DNA of 28,846 nt from an uncultured Acidimicrobiia bacterium (GTDB lineage: Bacteria; Actinomycetota; Acidimicrobiia; Spongiisociales; UBA11373), in assembly GCA_964471875.1 (NCBI GenBank), contig CAYYIA010000001.1, positions 1-28,846 of the forward strand, written 5' to 3'. Below are positions 12,450 through 24,006 of the stretch, one piece after another. The translations under genes were made by a program, and so were the position numbers. Positions within the stretch are counted from its first letter, which is position 1. Every line of letters starts with the position of its first letter. The notes below the pieces were generated by a model. It had not been told where the DNA came from and did not search any database. It saw only the letters and a list, made by a program, of their open reading frames with translations.

Positions 12450-14261
12450 TCACTTCTTCCTTGCCACCAGCACCAGGCTGTCGAGGCGCCACCGGTTGGC
12501 GGAGCGCAGCGGACTGGTCACCATTCGCACTTCCTCGAGTCCCGTCTCGGCGAGGAGGCGGCGCAGATCCTTGCGGGTGAAGTGCCAGATGTGCTTGTGC
12601 GGCTTGAGCGTCCACCACCTGGTGCGGGTGAGTCGCGCCGCCAGTGAGTCGAACCGCGGGCAGGAGAGAGCGACCACCCCACCGGGGCGGATGAGTCGCA
12701 CCGCGGCGTCCATGAATGCCTTTGGATCGGGGACGTGTTCGATGGTGTCCCAAAAGGCGACCACGTCGTAATCGGCGGCGGGGAGATCCACCACCTCCCC
12801 CACGAAGATCTCGGTGCCGAGGCGCTGTGATGCCATCTCGGCGGCGACGGGCGAGAATTCGAGCCCACCCACGGAGTAGCCCCGGCTCTTGGCGGCTTCG
12901 AGGAACATGCCGTAGGCGCACCCCACCTCGTAGAGGCTGGTGCGACGGCCATCGCCAAGTGCGGCGTCGATGAGATCGAGACGGCCATCGGACCAGGTGC
13001 GCTGCAGACCCTTGGCCCCCTCGGTCTTGTACACACCCGAGTCGAAGTAGGACCTCGCCCCGTAGAGGGCAAGCCGTCCTTCGTGGTTGAGTCGTGGGCT
13101 CATGAAGGCCTGACCGCAGGTGGGGCAGGTGACCAGAGCGAATTGGTCGAGTTGCCACCGTCGCTTTCCGGCGACTCGGCAGCGAAAACAGACGGCATTC
13201 TCGAAGTGCTCGGCGGGGTAGGTACCCCAGCGTCCCGGTCGCATTCCACTCGCTTTCGATCGGTTCCAGACGATCGCGGCGAAGGCTCCCGCGACGGTGG
13301 GCACAGCGTAGGTGAGGAAGCGAAAGACCAGGACGCCGGCCGCCACCAGAGCCGAATCGGCGCTGTCGAGTCCCGTGGCGAGCAGCCCGGTGAGTCCGAC
13401 TTCGGTGACCCCCAGGGAACCCGGGGTGATCGGGATCGCCGATATGAGCCGTACCAGGGCGAAGGCGGCGAGCACCGACGCCCAGTGCACCTCGTCGGCG
13501 TCAACCCCGATGTCGCGCAGCGCCACCAACAGGCAGGCGTAGAGAGAGAGGTGGTAGGCGAGTGTGGTCGCCATCAGTCGCAGCCAGCGAGTACCCACGG
13601 CATCTCCGAGGACGTCGAGGAACCGCTGGGAAGGCGAGTCGTCGGGATGGGGAGGCTTGTGCATCCGACGACGCACCCAGGCGACGAAGCGGTCGATGGG
13701 GCGGAGGACGCGATCCTTGAGGTGGGAACGCAGCACGACGACGATGGCCAGTGATGCCACGAGGAGGGAGGCGATGCCGATGAGCGTCCCGCTCACCAGG
13801 CTGGGCATCTCGACACCGCTCATGGCTGCGGCTGCCAACGCCACCGCCGGGAGCAGCATGCGGGCGAGGTTGTTCCAGATGCCGGTGAGGGCGACCGAGG
13901 CTCCGATTTCGGCGCCGGTATGGCCCCACCTCCCCAGCATCACGTAGGTGATGCCGACGCCGATCGCGCCACCGCCCGGGATGGTGTTGGCGGCGGTGGT
14001 GGCCACGGTGCGCGAGTAGAGGGCGCGTCCGAATCGCAGCGAGGGGATCACCGCCATCGTGGGGAGCGGTCCGATCAGGAAACTGATCGTCGCCACCGCC
14101 ACCAGCCATACCAGCCCCGTAGCCGACACCCCCTGGATGGCCCGCCACACCTCGTCGTAGTCGGCGAGCGCCGGCATGAGCCCGAGGAAGGCGACGCCGA
14201 TGAGAGCCGCGGTGATGAGGCCGACGAGGACGCGGCGCAGGCGGGGCGAGGGAGCGGACAC
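12450..14261 (-). CDS. Fusion: LPG-synthase-TM/YbhN (flippase-like) membrane domain + Zn-ribbon class I SAM methyltransferase
   Basis: N-terminal ~335 aa multi-TM (ANTIPGGGAIG, IPITPGSLGVTE, VFRFLTY); C-terminal CxxC...CxxC, EVGCAYG (motif I), DVVAFWDTIEHVPDP; TACACT -10 box 7 nt before GTG. Confidence 0.82.
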   Translation of the reverse strand: MSAPSPRLRRVLVGLITAALIGVAFLGLMPALADYDEVWRAIQGVSATGLVWLVAVATISFLIGPLPTMAVIPSLRFGRALYSRTVATTAANTIPGGGAIGVGITYVMLGRWGHTGAEIGASVALTGIWNNLARMLLPAVALAAAAMSGVEMPSLVSGTLIGIASLLVASLAIVVVLRSHLKDRVLRPIDRFVAWVRRRMHKPPHPDDSPSQRFLDVLGDAVGTRWLRLMATTLAYHLSLYACLLVALRDIGVDADEVHWASVLAAFALVRLISAIPITPGSLGVTEVGLTGLLATGLDSADSALVAAGVLVFRFLTYAVPTVAGAFAAIVWNRSKASGMRPGRWGTYPAEHFENAVCFRCRVAGKRRWQLDQFALVTCPTCGQAFMSPRLNHEGRLALYGARSYFDSGVYKTEGAKGLQRTWSDGRLDLIDAALGDGRRTSLYEVGCAYGMFLEAAKSRGYSVGGLEFSPVAAEMASQRLGTEIFVGEVVDLPAADYDVVAFWDTIEHVPDPKAFMDAAVRLIRPGGVVALSCPRFDSLAARLTRTRWWTLKPHKHIWHFTRKDLRRLLAETGLEEVRMVTSPLRSANRWRLDSLVLVARKK

Positions 14262-14411: not shown

Positions 14412-17144
14412 TCACCACTCCGTCAGCAGCCACACCTCCGGGCTCCAGGCTTCTCCCGTTCCCGTGGTGATCTCGGTGAAGAGCGACACCGCTTCCGTGA
14501 GCGATGCCATCGAGGCCTCGCTCTTGCCGGCTCGATGCAGGGCATCGGCCATCGTGTTGTGCAGCACGGCCATGAGGTGGCGGTCGCCGCTTTCGATGGC
14601 CAACTCGAGCGCCTCGCGGGCGAGACGCACGGCCTCCTCGGGGTCCGAGGCGGCCGCCGCCAGGTTGTTGAGGACCGCCATGCGCTCTGCCGGCTCGGCG
14701 GCACCGGTCAGGGCCCGACGCAGGTGGCCGAGGCGTTCGTCGCCGGTGGCCATCAACCCCGCAACGTTCTCGGCGCGCGTCGATGCCCGGGCGCTGGCGG
14801 AGTCCGCTGCCAATCGCAGGGCCTCCATCACCAGGGGACGAGCCGCCGCGGGCCCGCGTCGCTTGCCCTCGATGAAGGCGCGATCGGCGGCCACGATGGC
14901 GCGCAGTTCGGGGTCGGCTGCCTGCTCGGCGGCCCGGTCGTAGTGGGCAGCGGCGAGGTCCCAGCGCTGCAGTCGGCGGTGGATCTCTCCGAGGCGATGC
15001 TCGACCACCGGATCCGGGCCACCCTCGGCCAACGCCGCCTGGTAGCCGGCGACCGCCCGGTCGTAGCGTCCGGCGAGCAACGCACTGTGCGCTGCCGACC
15101 GGTGCAGCGTCGCCCGCTCGGGATGCCCCGCGGCGAGTGCGGATTCATAGTGCTCGATCGCCTCGCCGTGGGCGAAGACCGCGGCGGCCTCGTCGCCGGC
15201 CACGCGAAACCAGGTGGCGGCGAGACGATCGTCGCCGGCAGTGAGGCGGTGTCGGGCGATGCGGATGGCGGAACCCGGGCGCGGCCGTGCCTCGAGGGCA
15301 ACGGCGGCGCGGCGGTGGAGCAGGCGCCGACGAGCCGCGGTGTGACGGCCGGTGACCACGGCGGCGAGGTACTCGTGGGCGATGGTGACCGTGCCGTCGT
15401 CGGATTCGCCCACCATGCCCCGACGGGTGAGGGAGTCGAGGGCGTTGTCGGTTTCGTCGAGAGACCGTCCCGATACCGCGGCGAGCAGCGATGGATCGGC
15501 ATGACGTCCCACCACGACCACGGCGTCGAGCACCTGAGCGGCGGCACCATCGAGGGCGGCGATACGGTCGGTGAACAGTCGGCGCACCTGATCGGGCACC
15601 GCCTCGGTGCGGCCCCCGGCGGCGGCGCGGATCGCTTCGGTGACGAACAGCGGCAGCCCACCGGTGCGTCCGGTGAGTTCCCTCGCGTCGAGATCCACAC
15701 CGGCGGTGGCGATCAGTGCGGCGATGTCGTCTGCCGTCAGGGGTTCGAGGACGACCGTGGTTCCCCGGCGTGCCAGATCGGCAAGCATCGCCGCCACCGG
15801 GCCCTCTTCGGGGGCGTCACCCGCGGCCGAACCGACGACGAGCGAGATGCCGAAGCGGCGGGACCGCGCCGCGAGAAAGGCGATCATCTCGGCGGAGGCT
15901 TCGTCGCAGCGGTGGGCGTCGTCGACGATCAGTACCGGGGCAGGGAAGGCGGCGATGACGCGTGCCATGGCGTCGAGAAAGCGGGTCCGGGTCCCGGTCT
16001 CGGTTCGGGGTGGTGTCACCGAGAGACCGGGGAACACGCGCGAAGCCTCGGCGAGGACGGGGGCGGGAAGCATCGTCACCCTGCGGACCACGTCGGGATC
16101 CGATAGGGCCTCGAGAAGGGCGTCGTGGATCACTCCGAAAGGGATGCCCACGCCGGTGGCCGTGCCGCTGCCGGCGAGCACCGTGGCGCCATCGTTGCGC
16201 AACCGCGTCGCGATCTCGTGGAGGAAGCGGCTTACCCCCATTCCCGTCGATCCGACGGCTGTGGCCATCCCTCCCGGTGTGGCGATGGCGGCGAGGGCCA
16301 CGGCGAGTTGTGGGTCACGACCGAGCAGCGGCAGCGATACCGCGGTGGGCTCAGCCACTGCGGGCAGCGGACGACGCACCGGCGCCGGAGCACGGGGCAG
16401 GTCCTCTTCGAGGATCGCCTCGTACAACTCGGTCGTCTCCTCGAGGGGAGACACGCCGAGTTCGGTGTCGAGGGTCGCCACCAGACTGCGATAGGCATCC
16501 ACGGCACCGGAGCGATCACCCGACCAGGCCCGGAGCAGCATCAGACGGCGGTAGGCGTCCTCGTTGAGAGCGTCGATGCCGGTCCGACGGGTGGTCGTGT
16601 CGATGGCCGCTGCGTAGTCGCCGGCGGCGGCCTGAACGGCAGCGAGGCGTGTGAAGAGCCGGTCGGCGCGTCGGCGCACCTGCTCGTTTCGGGTGCGGAC
16701 CCACGACTCGAACTCGGGAGCGTCGCGCAGCACGAACCCCGACATGAACTCGCCGCGGTAGAGCGATGCCGCGTGGCGAAGGGCCGGCAGGCAGCGCGGG
16801 CAGGTGGCGGTGGCGTCGTGGCCGTGGAGGTCGTCGATGGCAGCGTCGAACTCGTCGAGGTCGATCGACATGTCGGCGTCCTGGACGGAGACCGCGGCCC
16901 GGTCGGCCTCCACCCAACGGTTGCCGAGTGCGGTGCGGAGCGTGGACAGCGTGCGGCGCAGGCTGGAGCGCGATTTCTCCGGATCCCCGTCCGGCCAGAG
17001 CAACTCGACCAATCGGTCCCGCGGGTGCTCGCCTCCCTCGACGGCGAGGTAGGCGAGCAGGGCCACGGCTTTGCGCGTGTCGACCTGCAGTGGGGCGCCA
17101 TCGACGGCCACCTCGGGCGATCCGAGAAGAGAAAGAGAGAGCAC
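14412..17144 (-). CDS. SARP/AfsR-like transcriptional regulator (wHTH-BTAD-AAA ATPase-TPR)
   Basis: LSLLG.PEV, RKAVALLAYLA, RDRLVELLWP, LYRGEF, E.AYRRLM; NTPase region with Walker B VLIVDDAH; helical repeats at the C-terminus. Confidence 0.9.
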   Translation of the reverse strand: MLSLSLLGSPEVAVDGAPLQVDTRKAVALLAYLAVEGGEHPRDRLVELLWPDGDPEKSRSSLRRTLSTLRTALGNRWVEADRAAVSVQDADMSIDLDEFDAAIDDLHGHDATATCPRCLPALRHAASLYRGEFMSGFVLRDAPEFESWVRTRNEQVRRRADRLFTRLAAVQAAAGDYAAAIDTTTRRTGIDALNEDAYRRLMLLRAWSGDRSGAVDAYRSLVATLDTELGVSPLEETTELYEAILEEDLPRAPAPVRRPLPAVAEPTAVSLPLLGRDPQLAVALAAIATPGGMATAVGSTGMGVSRFLHEIATRLRNDGATVLAGSGTATGVGIPFGVIHDALLEALSDPDVVRRVTMLPAPVLAEASRVFPGLSVTPPRTETGTRTRFLDAMARVIAAFPAPVLIVDDAHRCDEASAEMIAFLAARSRRFGISLVVGSAAGDAPEEGPVAAMLADLARRGTTVVLEPLTADDIAALIATAGVDLDARELTGRTGGLPLFVTEAIRAAAGGRTEAVPDQVRRLFTDRIAALDGAAAQVLDAVVVVGRHADPSLLAAVSGRSLDETDNALDSLTRRGMVGESDDGTVTIAHEYLAAVVTGRHTAARRRLLHRRAAVALEARPRPGSAIRIARHRLTAGDDRLAATWFRVAGDEAAAVFAHGEAIEHYESALAAGHPERATLHRSAAHSALLAGRYDRAVAGYQAALAEGGPDPVVEHRLGEIHRRLQRWDLAAAHYDRAAEQAADPELRAIVAADRAFIEGKRRGPAAARPLVMEALRLAADSASARASTRAENVAGLMATGDERLGHLRRALTGAAEPAERMAVLNNLAAAASDPEEAVRLAREALELAIESGDRHLMAVLHNTMADALHRAGKSEASMASLTEAVSLFTEITTGTGEAWSPEVWLLTEW

Positions 17145-17160: not shown

Positions 17161-17222
17161 CGTTACGGTGTTGGTGGCGCCCGGTGCCCGTAACGCTGCC
17201 GTAGCGGCCGATTCTGTAGGTT
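17161..17222. promoter_or_regulatory. Divergent promoter region with CCGTAACG boxes
   Basis: Plus strand: CCGTAACG (17188-95) and CCGTAGCG (17199-206), 11-bp period, then TAGGTT (17217-22) 6 nt before ATG 17229. Minus strand: CCGTAACG (17161-68) next to the TAGCCT -10 box of the regulator. Confidence 0.65.
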
Positions 17223-17228
17223 GCCGCG

Positions 17229-18482
17229 ATGCGTGACGGGGTCGAAGCGAGGGAGGCTGCTGCCAAACGGAGGGTGTGGTGGCGCTGGCCGGTGCTGGTG
17301 GTGCTCGTCGCCGCGACCCTGACCTGTGTCGCCGCCTACGAGATCTGGTTTCTCACCACCGATCTGGACACCGTCGCCAACAACTTCGCCATCCCCTGGG
17401 CGAAGGTGGTCGATCTCCTCCTCTCGGTGAACGCGTTGTTTTGGATGGTTCCCGGACTGGTGGTGTTGCGTCGGGCGAACTGGCATCCGGTTGGGTGGAT
17501 GCTGTTGGCAACCGGACTCGGGTTCTCGCTGAGCTTCGACATGGCGGAGCCCGAGGTGTGGGACGTGCTCGGGGTTCCGCATCATTGGGCGGCCTGGGTG
17601 GCCGACGGGTGGGGCAACTCGGTGTCGTTTGCTTTCACCGCCCTTCTCCTCTGCGTCTTCCCCGCCGGGATTCCCCAGGAACCGAAGGCGCGCCGCTGGA
17701 CATGGATCCGCATCACGGTCGCACTCACCGGGCTTGTCGCATCGGGTCTGGGTACAACCGTTGGGGGTCACGAGGACGCCACCTTCGACAGGAGGAGCTT
17801 CGACAACCCGACGGGTCTTGGAATCATCCCGATCGAGGTGGCGGGATGGATGTTCCTGCTGATCCTGATGAGCATGGTGGGAGCCGCCATAGCGCTGTGG
17901 CGGCGATCCCGCAGTGCCACCGAGCTTCAGCGCGGCCAGTACACCTGGGTGCTATTCCCCTTCGGTTTGATGATCACCACCGTGCTGGTGTCGATCCCTC
18001 TGTCCGGCCTGCTCGGAGACGGCGTATGGCTCGGCGCGGTCTGTATGTACTTCCTTGTTCCGATCGCGTTCTCGATCGCCATCGTGCGCCAGCGCCTGTT
18101 CGATATCGATCGCCTCGTGAGTCGCACGGTGAGTTACGCCGCCATCGCCTTGGTCATCGCGGCGGTCTATGCCGTGCCGGTGGTGATCCTGCCGAACTTG
18201 CTGGGGTTATCGAGCGATCTGTCGGTGGCGTTGGCGACGCTGGCGGCAGCGGCGGTCTTCAGCCCGGTGCGACGGCGGCTGCAGTCGATGACGGCGCAGC
18301 GGTTCGATCGGGATCGGTATGACGCCGAGCGGGTGGTGGCGGCCTTCTCGGGGAGGCTGCAGACGGCGGTGGATCTCGGTGTGTTGACCGACGAGCTGAG
18401 GAGTGCGGTCGGCGTGGCGCTGCGCCCCGCCGCGGTCTTCGTGTGGTTCAACGATTCCGTAACGGTTCCGGAACGATCCTGA
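17229..18482 (+). CDS. Multi-TM sensor-like protein 1 ending in an N-terminal GAF fragment
   Basis: About 10 TM segments; R.Q..W, IAI.R.RLFDIDRLVSRT, RFDRDRYDAE...VDLGVL.DEL...LRPAAVFVW; no output domain. Confidence 0.8.
   Translation: MRDGVEAREAAAKRRVWWRWPVLVVLVAATLTCVAAYEIWFLTTDLDTVANNFAIPWAKVVDLLLSVNALFWMVPGLVVLRRANWHPVGWMLLATGLGFSLSFDMAEPEVWDVLGVPHHWAAWVADGWGNSVSFAFTALLLCVFPAGIPQEPKARRWTWIRITVALTGLVASGLGTTVGGHEDATFDRRSFDNPTGLGIIPIEVAGWMFLLILMSMVGAAIALWRRSRSATELQRGQYTWVLFPFGLMITTVLVSIPLSGLLGDGVWLGAVCMYFLVPIAFSIAIVRQRLFDIDRLVSRTVSYAAIALVIAAVYAVPVVILPNLLGLSSDLSVALATLAAAAVFSPVRRRLQSMTAQRFDRDRYDAERVVAAFSGRLQTAVDLGVLTDELRSAVGVALRPAAVFVWFNDSVTVPERS
18446..18475 (+). promoter_or_regulatory. Triple 11-bp-period repeat upstream of the phosphatase gene
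   Basis: gttcAACG-att-CCGTAACG-gtt-CCGGAACG. Confidence 0.6.
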
Positions 18483-18497
18483 GCGAGGGTGGGTGAC

Positions 18498-20072
18498 ATG
18501 GCGCTATGGAAACGCAAGCGTGCGGTGCCCGACACGGTGACGCCGACCCAGACGGCAACGGCACCGGTCACCCCGGGCATCCCCATCGCACCGAACGATC
18601 CTTTGCACGCCTATCTCCTCCAGGCGGGGGGACCGGTGGAGTTGGCAAAGCTGGAACTCGAGTCGGATGCGGTGGCGGCGCTGCGCGCCGCCGGCTCCGT
18701 CCTCGTGGTGCCGCTCATCAGCCAGGGCGAGTTGCTCGGGACCCTGAGCCTGGGACCGCGGCTCTCCGACCAGCCGTACTCGTCAGACGACCGCCGGCTG
18801 TTGTCCAGCCTGGCGTCCCAGGTGGCCCCCGCGGTCAAGGTGGCCAATCTGGTGAAAGAACAGCAGGTCGAGACCAAGCAGCGGGAGCGCATCGAGCAGG
18901 AACTGCGCGTCGCCGCACTCATCCAACAGACCCTGCTTCCGAAGGAACTCCCCAGCCCTCCCGGATGGCAGATCGATGCCTTCTACCGACCTGCGCGCGC
19001 CGTCGGCGGCGACTTCTACGACTTCATCGCCCTCAGCGACGGAAGGTTGGGCTTCGTCATCGGTGACGTCACCGATAAGGGAGTGCCCGCAGCCCTGGTG
19101 ATGGCGACCACCCGTTCGCATCTGCGCGCCGCGGCACAGCGGTCCGATTCGCCCGGTGCGGTACTCGCCGACGCCAATGACATCCTGGTCGACGAGATCC
19201 CGCCGGGGATGTTCGTGACGTGTCTGTTCGGGGTACTCGACACCCACTCCGGCGAGATCCGCTTTGCCAACGCCGGGCACAATCTGCCCTACGTGTGTGG
19301 TGCCACCGGCGTCAACGAACTCCGCGCCACCGGGATGCCACTCGGTCTCATGGCCGGGATGCGTTACGACGAGGTGGTGGCGACCCTGCACCCGGGCGAA
19401 CTCATGGTGCTGTCGTCGGACGGGATCGTCGAAGCCCACGGGCCGGCGGGCGACATGTTCGGGTTCGGGTCCGTGCGGGCCACCATTGGCACCGCACCCG
19501 ACACCGATGTCATCGGTCACCTGCTCGAAGGATTTGGGCAGTTCACCGGACCCGGTCACGAACAGGAGGACGACATCACGCTGGTGTCGATCCGCCGGGT
19601 GGCCGGTGCCGAAGAGTCCGCCGCGGTCTTTGCCGGAAGCATCACCACCGTGCACGACGAGTTTTCGATGCCGTCTGCCGAGGGCAATGAGCGGGCCGTC
19701 ATGGAGCGCGTCGCCACGGTGGTCACCCCCCTCGGTCTGGCGCCCTCGCGTTTGGAGCGCCTCAAGACGGCGGTGGCGGAGGCGGCGATGAACGCCATCG
19801 AGCACGGCAATCACGGCGATCCCGAACTCCCGGTAGGCGTGCTCGTCGAATCGACATCGCGGACCGTGACGGTGCGCATCACCGATCAGGGCGGCGCCAC
19901 CGCCATTCCCGCCGCCCAGGTCCCCGACATCGAAGCCAAGCTGGCCGGCGATCAGAAACCTCGGGGTTGGGGCTTGTTCCTGATCGAGAAGATGGTGGAC
20001 GAGATGCGCACGCACTCGGAAGGCGAGCGGCATGTCATCGAGCTGGTGATGAATCGAGGGGAGTCCCGATGA
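18498..20072 (+). CDS. Half-GAF + PP2C (SpoIIE/RsbU-like) phosphatase + HATPase_c anti-sigma-type kinase (RsbW-like) fusion
   Basis: VVPLISQGELLGTLSLG...YSSDDRRLL (GAF C-half); VGGDFYD, IGDVTDKG, NAGH, SDGIVEA, EDDIT (PP2C); EAAMNAIEHGN, D.G, RGWGLFLI (HATPase). Alternative start GTG 18489. Confidence 0.92.
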   Translation: MALWKRKRAVPDTVTPTQTATAPVTPGIPIAPNDPLHAYLLQAGGPVELAKLELESDAVAALRAAGSVLVVPLISQGELLGTLSLGPRLSDQPYSSDDRRLLSSLASQVAPAVKVANLVKEQQVETKQRERIEQELRVAALIQQTLLPKELPSPPGWQIDAFYRPARAVGGDFYDFIALSDGRLGFVIGDVTDKGVPAALVMATTRSHLRAAAQRSDSPGAVLADANDILVDEIPPGMFVTCLFGVLDTHSGEIRFANAGHNLPYVCGATGVNELRATGMPLGLMAGMRYDEVVATLHPGELMVLSSDGIVEAHGPAGDMFGFGSVRATIGTAPDTDVIGHLLEGFGQFTGPGHEQEDDITLVSIRRVAGAEESAAVFAGSITTVHDEFSMPSAEGNERAVMERVATVVTPLGLAPSRLERLKTAVAEAAMNAIEHGNHGDPELPVGVLVESTSRTVTVRITDQGGATAIPAAQVPDIEAKLAGDQKPRGWGLFLIEKMVDEMRTHSEGERHVIELVMNRGESR

Positions 20073-20407
20073 ACGCATTCGAAGCATCTATCCGATCCGA
20101 GGGTTCGGCGACCGTCGTCGACATGACCGGTCTGCTCGATCGCTCGGCGGAGGCAGCGATGAACGAGGTCTTTGCCGCCGCTCTGGCGACGGGGTCGGGG
20201 ACCATCGTGTTCAACTTCGCCGGGGTGGAGTACATCAACTCCACCGGCATCGCCCTCGTGGTGGGGGCGCTGGCCAAGGCGCGTACCGCGGGCCGCCCGG
20301 TGCGGGCGTTCGGGCTCTCCGACCACTACCGGGAGATCTTCACGATCACCCGTCTGTCGGACTTCATGGGGATCTTCAGTGACGAGTCCGCCGCGGTGGC
20401 GGGATAG
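20069..20407 (+). CDS. STAS-domain anti-anti-sigma factor 1
   Basis: FNFAGVEYINSTGIAL with the phosphoacceptor-position Ser; ATGA overlap with the phosphatase. Confidence 0.9.
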   Translation: MNAFEASIRSEGSATVVDMTGLLDRSAEAAMNEVFAAALATGSGTIVFNFAGVEYINSTGIALVVGALAKARTAGRPVRAFGLSDHYREIFTITRLSDFMGIFSDESAAVAG

Positions 20408-20419
20408 GGAGAGGGAGCA

Positions 20420-20770
20420 ATGCCCGAGGCAAATGTGGCCATGACGGTGCGTGACGCTGCACCGACGATTCGCATCATCGATATCTCCGGAGAGGTGACG
20501 GCGTTTGCCGAGCCAGTGCTCGCCGAAGCCTTTGGTCAGGCGAGCAGCGGAGACACCAAGGCCGTGGTGTTCAACTTCGCCGGCATGGAGTACATGAACA
20601 GTGGTGGCATCGGCCTGCTGGTGACGACGCTGATTCGGGCCAACCGCAACCACCAGCAGATGCGGGCATTCGGTCTCTCTCAGCACTACCGCGAGATCCT
20701 GTCGCTCACCCGTCTCGACGAGGCCATTCGCATCTACGAGAACGAGGCCGCCGCGGTTGCGGGCGGGTGA
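20420..20770 (+). CDS. STAS-domain anti-anti-sigma factor 2
   Basis: IIDISGEV, FNFAGMEYMNSGGIGLL; GGGAG RBS. Confidence 0.9.
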   Translation: MPEANVAMTVRDAAPTIRIIDISGEVTAFAEPVLAEAFGQASSGDTKAVVFNFAGMEYMNSGGIGLLVTTLIRANRNHQQMRAFGLSQHYREILSLTRLDEAIRIYENEAAAVAGG

Positions 20771-20815
20771 TGACACCGCTTCCTCGATGCCCACTGCGGT
20801 GAAGGTCTGCCTCGC

Positions 20816-22027
20816 GTGGCGATGAATCGACGCGCACTCGTCGCCTGCGCGGCCGTGGCACTGACCGCCATCGGCGGTTGCGTCATGGTGATCGCCATGG
20901 CGGGAGCGCTTCCGGCGGGCGATCCCGAGGGCGCCACCCTTCCCTTCGTCCTGAGCGTGCTCGCAATCACCGCGTTCGCGTTCGGTGTGGTCGGGGCCGT
21001 GGTGCTGATCCGTCGCCCCGAGAACCGGCTCGGGGGTCTCCTCGTCGCCGCCGGACCGTTGATCATCCTCACCTTTGGCGGGTTCGTGGCTGCCGGGATC
21101 AAGACGGTCTCGGCGGATTGGGACCCAGCCCGCGCCGACTGGGCGGGATGGGTGGGCAGCGTCGCCTTCTATCCGATGTTCCTCGTGTTTGGACAGATCG
21201 TCATTCGCTTCCCTGATGGCCGCCTGCCCTCGCTGCGTTGGCGATGGGCAGTGCGGGGGCTCGTCGTGGCCATCCTCGCGGTGACGCTGCTGTTCGCGGT
21301 GATGCCGGGGAACCTGGGCGACGAGCTTGGCAGTAATCCCATCGGACTGGAACTGGCCCCCCTCGAAGCGCTAGCGCCCTTCACCTATGCGCTCGGCTCG
21401 ATCGTGGTGATCGTGGCCATGGCGATGGGGGTCGTCGCGGTGATCGTGCGGTTTCGTCGTGCCCGGGGGGTGGCACGAGAGCAGCACAAGTGGTTGCTCG
21501 CCGCGATCGCGATCCTGGCTGTCGCCCTCCCGCCGTCGTTCATCGACGGTTCCGAGGGCGTCACCGCCTTCGACGTCCTTGGTTTCACCAGCCTGCTGTT
21601 CGTACCGGTCTCCATCGGGATCGCGGTGACTCGCTACCGGCTGTACGAGATCGATCGGATCTTCAGTCGAACCCTCACCTTCACCGTGGTGGTGCTGGTT
21701 CTCGGAGCAATGTACGTCCTGGTTGTGGTGTTGCCCTTCACCCTGGTGTTGGGGAGGGGCGGGGGCGAGGTACCGGCGTGGATGGTGGCCGGTGCCACCC
21801 TCGGTGCGGCAGCCCTCTTCTCGCCGCTGCGTCGCAGGGTGCAGGCGGCAGTAGATCGCAGGTTCAATCGCTCGCGATACGACGCCGAGTTGGTGGTCGA
21901 GCGATTTGCCTCGCAGGTGCGGGACTACACGGACGTGATATCGATCTCCTCGGGGCTGCGGGTTGCGGTGTCCGGAGCCCTGCAACCCGCCGGGGTGTCG
22001 ATCTGGGTCCGCGAGGTGGGATCGTGA
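20816..22027 (+). CDS. Multi-TM sensor-like protein 2 ending in an N-terminal GAF fragment
   Basis: RRPENRLG.LL, FPDGRLPS.RWRW, NPIG, REQHKW, RYRLYEIDR, RFNRSRYDAE...LQPAGVSIW. Confidence 0.82.
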   Translation: MAMNRRALVACAAVALTAIGGCVMVIAMAGALPAGDPEGATLPFVLSVLAITAFAFGVVGAVVLIRRPENRLGGLLVAAGPLIILTFGGFVAAGIKTVSADWDPARADWAGWVGSVAFYPMFLVFGQIVIRFPDGRLPSLRWRWAVRGLVVAILAVTLLFAVMPGNLGDELGSNPIGLELAPLEALAPFTYALGSIVVIVAMAMGVVAVIVRFRRARGVAREQHKWLLAAIAILAVALPPSFIDGSEGVTAFDVLGFTSLLFVPVSIGIAVTRYRLYEIDRIFSRTLTFTVVVLVLGAMYVLVVVLPFTLVLGRGGGEVPAWMVAGATLGAAALFSPLRRRVQAAVDRRFNRSRYDAELVVERFASQVRDYTDVISISSGLRVAVSGALQPAGVSIWVREVGS

Positions 22028-23277
22028 CTCGGCGGCGCAGCTTCCGGGTTGGCGTCTCCATCGTCGTGGTGCTCGGGCTTCTCAGCCTCGCGCTGTCTGT
22101 TGCCGGGACGGTGTTCGCCACCCGGAACAGCCGCCTGCTCGGTGAAGCGGTGGACTGGTCGGGGTTGGCATGGGGTCTGTGGCCGGCAGCCTTCGTCGTG
22201 GTTGGGGCGGTCGTCGCTGTGGCGCGACCCGCGGTCTTCGTGGGCTGGGGTCTCCTCACTGCGGGGTTCGCCGTGGAGGTCGGGGCGTTCGGCGGCGCCT
22301 ATGGCGGATGGGCGGCCCTGTCCGGAAGGTCGGCTCCGATGTCCGATGTCGCCATCTGGCTCGGGATGGTCTCTGGGGGCGTAGCCGCGACGATGGTGCT
22401 GCAGGTGGTCACAAGGCTTCCCTCGGGTCTGCCCGACACCCCCATCGCCCAACAGACGGCGCGGGTCGCATGGGTGCTCGGCACCGCCCTCGTCGCTTGG
22501 TGGGCGTTCAGCGACGAGGTGCTCTCGATCAACACGATGTCCGGCGATGCCGTGCACACCCCGGACCTCCCCAACCCCGTGGCGTTGATACACACGAGCC
22601 GCGCTGTGACGTCGGCAGTCACCGGTTCGCTCACACTCGGCTTGGTCTTGTGCTTTCTGTGGTCGGTGGGGTTGATCCTGAACCGCCGTCGTCGGGCCTC
22701 GGTGGCAGAGCGCGCTCAATTGCGGTGGCTGGCGCTGGGGCTCCTCGCCCTTCCGGTGGTGGCGGGCGTCACCACGGTGCTTGCCAACCTGGTGACCATC
22801 CCGCAATCCGTCGCCGACATCCTGTTCGTCTCACTCGTGGTCGTCGGTCTCGGCGCCATCCCGGTGTCGATTGCGGTTTCGGTCCTCAAGTTCCGGCTCT
22901 TCGACATCGATCGGCTGATCAGCCGAACGCTGGCGTTCGCCGTCGTGGCGCTCGTCCTGGGCTCGTGCTACGCGGTGCTGGCGGTGCTCCCCTTCACGCT
23001 GGTGGCCGGCATGAGTGGTGGTGATACGCCCTCCTGGGTGGTGGCCTCTGCAACCCTTGCGGTGGCGGTGTTGTTCTCGCCGCTGCGGAAGCGAGTGCGG
23101 CGCGTGGTGGATCGGCGCTTCAACCGATCGCACTATGACGCCGAGCGAGTTGCTGAGCGCTTCGCATCCCGGGTGCGCGAGTTCAGCGATTTGGGCACCA
23201 TCACGACAGATCTCGGTATGGCCGTGCAGGGTGCGCTGCAGCCGGCGATGTTGGCCGTGTGGGTCCGAAACCCGTAA
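22024..23277 (+). CDS. Multi-TM sensor-like protein 3 ending in an N-terminal GAF fragment
   Basis: GTGA overlap with sensor 2; RAQLRW, KFRLFDIDRLISRT, RFNRSHYDAE...LQPAMLAVW. Confidence 0.8.
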   Translation: MTRRRSFRVGVSIVVVLGLLSLALSVAGTVFATRNSRLLGEAVDWSGLAWGLWPAAFVVVGAVVAVARPAVFVGWGLLTAGFAVEVGAFGGAYGGWAALSGRSAPMSDVAIWLGMVSGGVAATMVLQVVTRLPSGLPDTPIAQQTARVAWVLGTALVAWWAFSDEVLSINTMSGDAVHTPDLPNPVALIHTSRAVTSAVTGSLTLGLVLCFLWSVGLILNRRRRASVAERAQLRWLALGLLALPVVAGVTTVLANLVTIPQSVADILFVSLVVVGLGAIPVSIAVSVLKFRLFDIDRLISRTLAFAVVALVLGSCYAVLAVLPFTLVAGMSGGDTPSWVVASATLAVAVLFSPLRKRVRRVVDRRFNRSHYDAERVAERFASRVREFSDLGTITTDLGMAVQGALQPAMLAVWVRNP

Positions 23278-23290
23278 CGATCCCGTGACG
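23272..23290 (+). promoter_or_regulatory. 11-bp-period repeat upstream of the 23326 gene
   Basis: CCGTAACG-atc-CCGTGACG. Confidence 0.6.
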
Positions 23291-23325
23291 GCGTGGTGGT
23301 GTCATGGGTCACGAGGAGGAACGAG

Positions 23326-24006
23326 ATGAGTGGAGTGAGGGACGACGACAACTGGGCGAAACCGGTGGAACGCCTCGAGGTGGGGTCGGTTCCGGAGGGC
23401 GCCAAGGGCCAGACCGTGCAGGGCCGCAAACTCACCGGACCGCTGCAGGGCTTCGGCCAGATGTGGCAAAAGACCTACCAGGTGCGCATCGACGGGAAGA
23501 ACCCCGAAGAGATCATCGCGGTGTGGAAGTCGTCGTACGGCCGGTTCTGGCCCAAGACCAACCGGTTCTACGCACCGATCGCCGGCATCAAGCCCGGTGA
23601 GGTCGGCCTCATCACCGGCAAGACCGGTCCGGTGAAGCTCTCCACCGGGGTGATGGTGCTCTACGCCGACGATCGCTCGTTCACCTACATGACCCCGGAG
23701 GGTCACCCGTTTGCCGGATGGATCACCTTCAGCGCTCACGACGAGGCCGACCACTCCATCGCCCAGGTGTCGGCACTGATCCGGTCCAACGATCCCATCT
23801 ACGAAGCGGGGTTCATCGCCTACGGGAACCGCGCCGAGGACAAGATGTGGCAGCACACCTTGCGGTCGCTCGCCCGTCACCTCGGATCCCCCCACGAGCC
23901 CACCACCGAGCGGGTCAAGGTCGATCGCAAGCGCATGTGGCGCAACTTCGGGAACATCCGGCGCAACGCGATGCTCACGGGGTTGTTTCGGAGGAAGGCG
24001 AAGTAG
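23326..24006 (+). CDS. Uncharacterised protein, possibly DUF1990/SRPBCC-like fold
   Basis: Strong GAGGAGG RBS; GPLQGFGQMWQKTY, MTPEGHPFAGWITFS, E...WQHTL..LA; fold assignment is a guess. Confidence 0.7.
   Translation: MSGVRDDDNWAKPVERLEVGSVPEGAKGQTVQGRKLTGPLQGFGQMWQKTYQVRIDGKNPEEIIAVWKSSYGRFWPKTNRFYAPIAGIKPGEVGLITGKTGPVKLSTGVMVLYADDRSFTYMTPEGHPFAGWITFSAHDEADHSIAQVSALIRSNDPIYEAGFIAYGNRAEDKMWQHTLRSLARHLGSPHEPTTERVKVDRKRMWRNFGNIRRNAMLTGLFRRKAK

Follow-up and report, generated by a model that had tools for sequence, protein, structure and literature searches.

In this study, a 28,846-nucleotide stretch of DNA from an uncultured Acidimicrobiia bacterium (contig C1 of its assembly, CAYYIA010000001.1; hereafter the window) was analysed and found to carry a cassette with a soluble phosphatase/kinase, two STAS proteins and three polytopic membrane proteins (the sensors). 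The cassette probably encodes a partner-switching module whose GAF input domain is supplied in two pieces, the tails of the sensors completing in trans the GAF domain with which the phosphatase begins. The source assembly is a metagenome-assembled genome of 2.08 Mb in 408 contigs, 82% complete and with about 68% G+C, and the closest named homologues of the window phosphatase in a database search came from Acidimicrobiia. All open reading frames (ORFs) listed in an earlier note on this DNA were found in their places. The genes of the module and the two GAF pieces are as follows (aa, amino acids):

17229..18482, + strand: sensor 1, 417 aa, a polytopic membrane protein without an output domain that ends in GAF helix a1 and strand b1
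18375..18449, + strand: GAF N-terminal fragment of sensor 1, residues 383-407, with helix a1, a conserved Pro and strand b1 with an invariant Trp (AlphaFold2 and alignment to 6oap and 3eea)
18498..20072, + strand: soluble half-GAF / PP2C (SpoIIE) / RsbW-like HATPase_c_2 kinase, 524 aa (Pfam)
18579..18863, + strand: C-terminal two thirds of the GAF domain, phosphatase residues 31-125 (Pfam, alignment and AlphaFold2)
20069..20407, + strand: STAS protein 1, anti-sigma antagonist type (Pfam STAS, 2.7e-10; INSTG motif)
20420..20770, + strand: STAS protein 2 (Pfam STAS, 2.9e-11; MNSGG motif)
20816..22027, + strand: sensor 2, 403 aa, with its GAF a1-b1 fragment at about 21932-22009
22024..23277, + strand: sensor 3, 417 aa, with its GAF a1-b1 fragment at about 23188-23265

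Fifteen nucleotides (nt) separate the TGA stop of sensor 1 from the phosphatase ATG, the start of STAS 1 overlaps the phosphatase stop (ATGA) and the start of sensor 3 overlaps the end of sensor 2 (GTGA). The phosphatase ORF opens at GTG 18489, and ATG 18498 is preceded by a GAGGG site; the true start is probably ATG 18498, which gives MALWKRKR, the N-terminus common to the database protein and its homologues. Membrane part and phosphatase do not form a single polypeptide in the window, where a stop codon and a separate start lie between the two.

Both pieces were recognised as parts of one GAF domain with the help of proteins in which they are joined. In the same genome, a fused paralogue of 775 aa (contig C11, locus L006) leads from the tail directly into the remaining GAF and a PP2C domain. 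Among 1.84 billion representative proteins searched with the C11 region, many fused proteins of 735-860 aa matched it end to end. Two fused transmembrane (TM)-GAF-SpoIIE-HATPase_c_2 proteins, of 947 (P0265) and 1008 aa, carry the kinase too, so a complete unsplit architecture exists. In five fused proteins, the Pfam GAF match extended from profile position 1 or 3 to position 130-133 and began at the tail helix (residues 371-491 of P0258 and 342-475 of P0254). Moreover, an alignment of the read-through junction with 34 fusions, 42 sensor tails and 38 half-GAFs (alignment A2, enzyme leaders trimmed) was colinear: sensor tail plus phosphatase N-terminus correspond to the fused proteins, and the break falls in a variable-length loop after the Trp strand. 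The A2 profile aligned with solved GAF structures from a1 through to their final helix (6oap_A, 1.2e-8; 3eea_A, residues 5-160 of 162), and the sensor tail fell on a1-b1 in both alignments. Whether the sensor tails align to the GAF N-terminal part had been set beforehand as a refuting test, and the tails were found to align there, by the Pfam coverage of the fused proteins as well as by the A2 profile; a sensor tail alone is too short for Pfam detection.

The earlier note had described the phosphatase/kinase as a protein without a TM segment that begins with the C-terminal GAF part, and this description held. The maximum 19-residue hydropathy was 1.65 and lay inside the PP2C core, and residues 31-115 matched positions 47-133 of the 133 in the Pfam GAF profile (E 2.8e-8), with matches to GAF_2 and GAF_3 as well. 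Furthermore, this N-terminus is not a complete domain, both by the Pfam profile and in the AlphaFold2 model, which shows it without helix a1 and strand b1. The PP2C core matched SpoIIE (4.6e-46, over profile positions 1-191), and its metal-binding Asp motifs (GGDFYD, GDVTDKG, SDG and EDDIT) are present and are invariant in a further alignment (A4). The kinase domain matched HATPase_c_2 (6.1e-22), with sub-threshold matches to anti-sigma F and RsbW models. Both STAS proteins keep the phosphorylatable Ser (in INSTG and MNSGG), a residue assigned from what is known of SpoIIAA and RsbV. Judged by sequence, the parts of an RsbU/RsbV/RsbW-type partner switch are present, namely a PP2C phosphatase, a kinase of the RsbW/SpoIIAB type and STAS proteins with the Ser. 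The homologues of the enzyme form a family of hundreds of members of 520-550 aa that cover only the enzyme part of the junction query. Nine of the ten N-terminal half-GAF proteins examined carry SpoIIE and the tenth carries GAF only; no non-PP2C output domain fused to a half-GAF was found among these ten.

The N-termini of the enzyme family share a short hydrophobic and polybasic motif of the MALLKRRR or MVQLMRRRR type (window positions 18498-18524; P0129-P0173), ahead of a leader of about 20 aa that is variable and disordered. This motif may be a membrane-binding patch, or it may take the place of strand b1 while the enzyme is free.

The three paralogous membrane proteins had been said to lack an output domain and to stop at a common point, and both observations were borne out. 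No Pfam or NCBIfam match was obtained for the proteins of 417, 403 and 417 aa, and all three show RF.R..YDAE, a helix and L.P.....W before stopping 11, 6 and 4 residues past the Trp (sensors 1, 2 and 3, respectively). Ten TM helices with both termini in the cytoplasm were predicted from hydropathy, the positive-inside pattern and the AlphaFold2 model (predicted local distance difference test score, pLDDT, 87.6). The sensor family comprises more than 3,400 database members, almost all of 390-420 aa, unnamed and with the same end point; some carry the label 'MFS family permease', and no curated model of the family was found in Pfam or NCBIfam. In an alignment of 108 family members, the tail is under strong purifying selection, and P391 and W397 of the terminal strand are among the invariant columns. 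The Trp is present in 100% of the stand-alone sensors versus 66% of the fusions, and the tail Pro is likewise invariant in the stand-alone sensors. When the whole sensor model was compared with the PDB by Foldseek, nothing significant was found (best E 0.013, TM-score about 0.3, generic helical bundles), and the Atlas yielded no more than unnamed clusters from Actinomycetota and a distant lead to HisKA_7TM.

Several variants of the sensors were also seen. Some HisKA_3/HATPase_c histidine kinases, 700-790 aa long, begin with the TM module and its tail (loci L024, L025 and L026), so the input module is not specific to phosphatases. At another locus (L020:5992-7839, - strand), a 615-aa sensor lies directly upstream of its own half-GAF phosphatase. 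It joins the usual tail to a non-homologous front part, a different head for the same plug. Ahead of the conserved RF/RY..D.DR motif it contains a cupredoxin-like insert, in which a Cys-His-Met motif resembles that of type-1 copper sites. Signs of turnover in the sensor arrays included tandem-fused copies of 595-814 aa (L008:8001-9788; L017:8632-11076) and tail-only remnants of 75-99 aa (G178:C3:26957-27187; G102:C2:211218-211418).

The foldability of the composite was examined with AlphaFold2 on the natural in-frame read-through junction, with the TGA read as W and A2 as the alignment. The junction was modelled as a confident GAF fold (pLDDT 84.7; predicted TM-score, pTM, 0.74). Block-mean pLDDT was about 85-95 for the sensor-derived helix (sensor 1 residues 383-398; model residues 48-63) and 85-98 for the half-GAF part, with a core of 96-98, and the 40-residue leader joining the two pieces was disordered. 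Sensor 1 residues 403-407 (model residues 68-72) were assigned as a beta strand, which in the model pairs with phosphatase strands; its only other strands are phosphatase residues 72-78 and 81-88. All top PDB matches of the composite in Foldseek were GAF domains, with a target TM-score of up to 0.65; as had been expected, the single joined chain is modelled as one GAF. When sensor 2 was modelled alone, the ten TM helices and two further helices were obtained, a1 among them, and the last 14 residues, which include the invariant Pro and Trp, were coil (mean pLDDT of the last residues about 64). With a covalent chain and with fused homologues in the alignment, these AlphaFold2 results speak for the compatibility of the pieces, not for binding.

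The two halves also occur together. In a survey of 201 genomes of the class, searched with each half, strong stand-alone sensors (frames mostly of about 400 aa) were found in 14 and the strong half-GAF enzyme in the same 14, that is, in 14 of 14 genomes with sensors versus 0 of 187 genomes without them. Each positive genome had one strong-matching enzyme (529-563 aa on complete contigs) and 1-13 sensor matches, and in most of the 14 a sensor gene ended within about 100 nt of the enzyme start. A neighbourhood survey of this kind had been called for by the earlier note, and the stand-alone sensors and half-GAF phosphatases did co-occur genome by genome, usually as neighbours. In the window genome, five stand-alone sensors accompany one enzyme and one fusion; two of the stand-alone copies are found apart from the cassette, on contigs C196 and C117. 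Neither half turned up in the eight remaining genomes of the family to which the window belongs, whereas 12-13 of 20 genomes of a sister family have them. Horizontal transfer, lineage loss or the binning of the contig into the wrong genome are possible causes of this patchy distribution.

In the related cassettes, the half-GAF-PP2C-kinase is accompanied by 2-9 sensors, two STAS genes, a DUF1990-like gene and a divergently placed BTAD regulator; an amine oxidase is often present as well. The same arrangement was seen in every related locus examined, a recurrence far beyond chance. Moreover, a scan of named genomes located the cassette in Gaiellales, Thermoleophilia, Rubrobacteraceae and Chloroflexia besides Acidimicrobiia, including the cultured strains Blastococcus saxobsidens DSM 44509 and Ktedonobacter racemifer DSM 44963, with sensors within 10 kb of the enzyme in most of the sufficiently long loci. 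Adjacent sensor and enzyme genes share a reading frame in 5 of 14 pairs, the chance rate; the other nine are out of frame or overlap, as by ATGA at locus L007. The overlapping ATGA junctions and mixed frames indicate separate genes, and since only 5 of 14 pairs are in frame, the in-frame TGA of the window has no conserved meaning. The split is ancient and conserved, across Actinomycetota and Chloroflexota.

The paralogues diverge unevenly along their length. The three window sensors are 18-22% identical in TM1-8 versus 44-62% in the tail, and the tails of sensors 3 and 2 are 61% identical. Among 82 sensors from 33 distinct loci, the identity of TM1-8 was 27% for pairs within a locus versus 26% for pairs between genomes; the corresponding values were 53% versus 33% for the GAF fragment and 66% versus 53% for the juxtamembrane helix. 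This helix was the most conserved part of the sensors (61% mean pairwise identity versus 36% for the a1-b1 fragment). The similarity of the tails within a locus fits a shared partner.

Several observations weigh against completion of the GAF domain in trans. The similarity of the tails could also stem from gene conversion, or from recent duplications whose TM divergence is saturated. A mirror-tree/partial-Mantel test, with PP2C divergence controlled, found no covariation of tail and half-GAF beyond phylogeny (partial r = -0.05; 1397 of 2000 permutations as high), in what is a coarse test. In the fold test, the chain was covalently joined and the alignment contained fused homologues, which biases the result towards a composite. 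The family appears to lack the canonical GAF b2 region, the solved GAFs having 22-27 extra residues between b1 and the next conserved element, and a minimal GAF without canonical b2 may behave unlike the known ones; some fused members in A2 have insertions between b1 and the next element. In one genome (L021), no sensor lies within 6 kb of the enzyme. The cassette also lacks an output target: no sigma factor was found among the conserved neighbours in loci with precomputed Pfam annotation or among the scanned window genes, a result that covers the neighbourhood only and no genome-wide sigma search.

Some of these points favour a different contact between the same partners. The sensors could regulate the enzyme, for example, through packing of their juxtamembrane helix against the long linker helix of the enzyme, or through its basic N-terminal leader, with the half-GAF stable or dimeric alone and a1-b1 not inserted. 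The better conservation of the juxtamembrane helix (61%) than of a1-b1 (36%) and the absence of specific covariation between the GAF pieces agree with such an interface, and the conserved hydrophobic and polybasic N-terminus of the enzyme could contact the membrane or the sensor. However, the terminal Pro and Trp are invariant in proteins otherwise without cytoplasmic beta structure, the break lies inside the core of a single fold, and the composite is predicted confidently whereas the strand is coil in the lone sensor; we regard another interface as unlikely. It is quite improbable that the membrane proteins are independent of the phosphatase, being for example transporters or enzymes, or signalling to another partner, and merely co-regulated or co-inherited, with a tail that is a dimerisation stub left by an old fission. 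The permease labels, the TM fold without a solved relative and the copies on C196 and C117 away from the cassette would suit such proteins. Nevertheless, the TM module with its tail serves as N-terminal input in fused PP2C phosphatases and HisKA_3 histidine kinases, the halves co-occur in 14 of 14 versus 0 of 187 genomes, and the tail is under strong purifying selection.

Two further explanations concern the junction itself. Sensor 1 and the phosphatase could be made as one chain by read-through of the TGA, with the fused form being the working one, since 17229 and 18489 are in one frame with a single TGA between them and the fused 947-aa homologue has the same length. Such a chain is very improbable: the enzyme has a GAGGG site in front of it and a conserved N-terminus led by Met, and no enzyme follows sensors 2 and 3. 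Programmed TGA read-through as a conserved feature was ruled out by the in-frame pairs at the chance rate (5 of 14) and by several ATGA overlaps. More improbable still is decay or an assembly error, in which a fused gene was broken by a nonsense mutation and the other sensors are truncated duplicates. The fragmented metagenome-assembled genome (408 contigs) and the tail-only remnants and tandem fusions of some relatives might suggest it, but thousands of intact homologues of about 400 aa have the same end, hundreds of enzymes of 520-550 aa have the same start, and both halves are conserved in two phyla, isolate genomes included. A nonsense mutation or assembly artefact was ruled out, both halves being kept as separate genes in these thousands and hundreds of homologues.

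Completion of the GAF domain in trans is the best-supported mechanism, and in it the two chains would associate physically. The soluble chain unites PP2C and an RsbW-type kinase, has the two STAS proteins as its substrates, and carries the GAF domain from 'I.IP..DPL' onwards together with the long exit helix to PP2C; helix a1 and strand b1 would come from the cytoplasmic tail of the 10-TM protein. By analogy, the incomplete GAF would hold the enzyme in one default state. A sensor, probably dimeric, would dock its tail into the incomplete GAF, whereby the fold would be completed and the enzyme tethered at the membrane. A change in sensor conformation could then pass through the juxtamembrane helix to a1, the GAF exit helix and the PP2C switch element, which would shift the balance of kinase and phosphatase on the STAS proteins, both of which would carry the output. 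Divergent sensors (five stand-alone ones here, up to 13 in relatives) would share or compete for the single enzyme. We infer both the direction of regulation and the service of all paralogues by one enzyme. With a slight lean in its favour, we further propose that the cassette is a natural protein-fragment-complementation device, in which each receptor of the family can complete, recruit and switch one soluble phosphatase/kinase and a single additional membrane gene suffices for a new input; GAF-linked histidine kinases may also make use of this plug.

The remaining features of the cassette region are the following:

14412..17144, - strand: BTAD-AAA_16-TPR (SARP/AfsR-like) regulator, the divergent neighbour (Pfam BTAD, 4.2e-19; AAA_16; TPR_12)
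18457..18475, + strand: direct repeat CCGTAACG / CCGGAACG with 11-bp spacing, just upstream of the phosphatase start
about 23326-24006, + strand: DUF1990-like protein, the conserved last cassette gene (Pfam DUF1990, 2e-4, below cut-off)

The divergent BTAD regulator also stands beside the cassette in related loci L008, L027 and L028. The ORF of the DUF1990-like gene opens at 23293, and ATG 23326 carries an AGGAGG site. A homologue of about 240 aa follows the STAS genes in most sufficiently long loci, often with an FAD amine oxidase after it. The DUF1990-like protein and the FAD amine oxidase may be part of the output; together with the BTAD regulator they are output candidates only. Like repeat pairs were found at 17188-17206, upstream of sensor 1, and at 23272-23290, upstream of the DUF1990-like gene. 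All four exact window copies of CCGTAACG lie in the cassette cluster, the fourth at 17161-17168 on the - strand, and three of the four have a near-copy 11 bp downstream. Furthermore, at least eight related loci (L010, L013, L030, L033, L039, L042, L064 and others) have CCGTAACGNNNCCG about 30-40 nt before the phosphatase ORF, partly within the 3' end of the preceding sensor gene. The repeat is probably an operator or part of an internal promoter, and it may be bound by the BTAD regulator, a candidate for this role. Farther upstream, the window encodes a 603-aa protein (12450-14261, - strand) with a TM region of the lysyl-phosphatidylglycerol-synthase type fused to a class I methyltransferase domain.

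The nearest relatives in architecture are the uncharacterised single-chain TM-GAF-PP2C(/HATPase_c_2) proteins, such as those of 775 aa on C11 and 947 aa (P0265), which are alike in the TM module, RF.R..YD, GAF, coiled linker, PP2C, order and colinearity. In contrast to them, the window chain is cut inside the GAF after b1, with the membrane half multiplied and diversified and the enzyme half kept single. In the receiver-PP2C-kinase proteins HsbR and CrsR, the state of the input domain switches kinase versus phosphatase activity on a STAS protein (bioRxiv 10.1101/2024.11.25.625174). HsbR/HsbA of Pseudomonas and CrsR/CrsA of Shewanella resemble the window system in that one protein combines an input domain with PP2C and an anti-sigma-type kinase and works on a STAS protein; the input there is a complete receiver domain, which HptB phosphorylates, whereas the window has an incomplete GAF, membrane-borne complements and two STAS proteins. 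In related phosphatases, it is established that the signal of the sensor domain passes via a coiled-coil linker to the PPM switch (PMC12143880). Rv1364c of M. tuberculosis and RsbZ of C. difficile, from general stress responses, have a PAS or GAF sensor, a coiled-coil linker and a PPM phosphatase as the window enzyme does, and Rv1364c has kinase and STAS in the same chain too (PMC12143880). The sensor domains of these two proteins are complete and soluble, unlike the split GAF and membrane subunits of the window. To our knowledge, no separate membrane subunits are known for either of them. In B. subtilis, several alternative sensors of the stressosome converge on one PP2C, and RsbQ-RsbP is a sensing module spread over two proteins (PMC12143880; PMC3183031). 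The partners there are whole folded domains that bind each other, whereas in the window one fold is apparently divided between partners. In the stressosome, the RsbRA-RD and YtvA paralogues feed RsbT and then RsbU.

Literature searches (split GAF, gene fission, GAF partner switching, HisKA_7TM) found no published description of a split GAF or of the sensor family. The component parts of the module are known; what is new is how one domain is shared out over alternative partners. Bacterial sensors are normally seen as chains of complete domains, and accessory membrane proteins as binders of folded domains. One sensory fold divided between a multiplied membrane subunit and one enzyme would offer a simple evolutionary route to signalling with many inputs and one output. 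The idea can be tested directly, since two cultured strains, Ktedonobacter racemifer DSM 44963 and Blastococcus saxobsidens DSM 44509, carry the cassette. If it is true, the cassette would be a natural case of regulated domain completion, and a role would be given to a large unannotated family of 'hypothetical' membrane proteins of about 400 aa, with more than 3,400 members in Actinomycetota and Chloroflexota.

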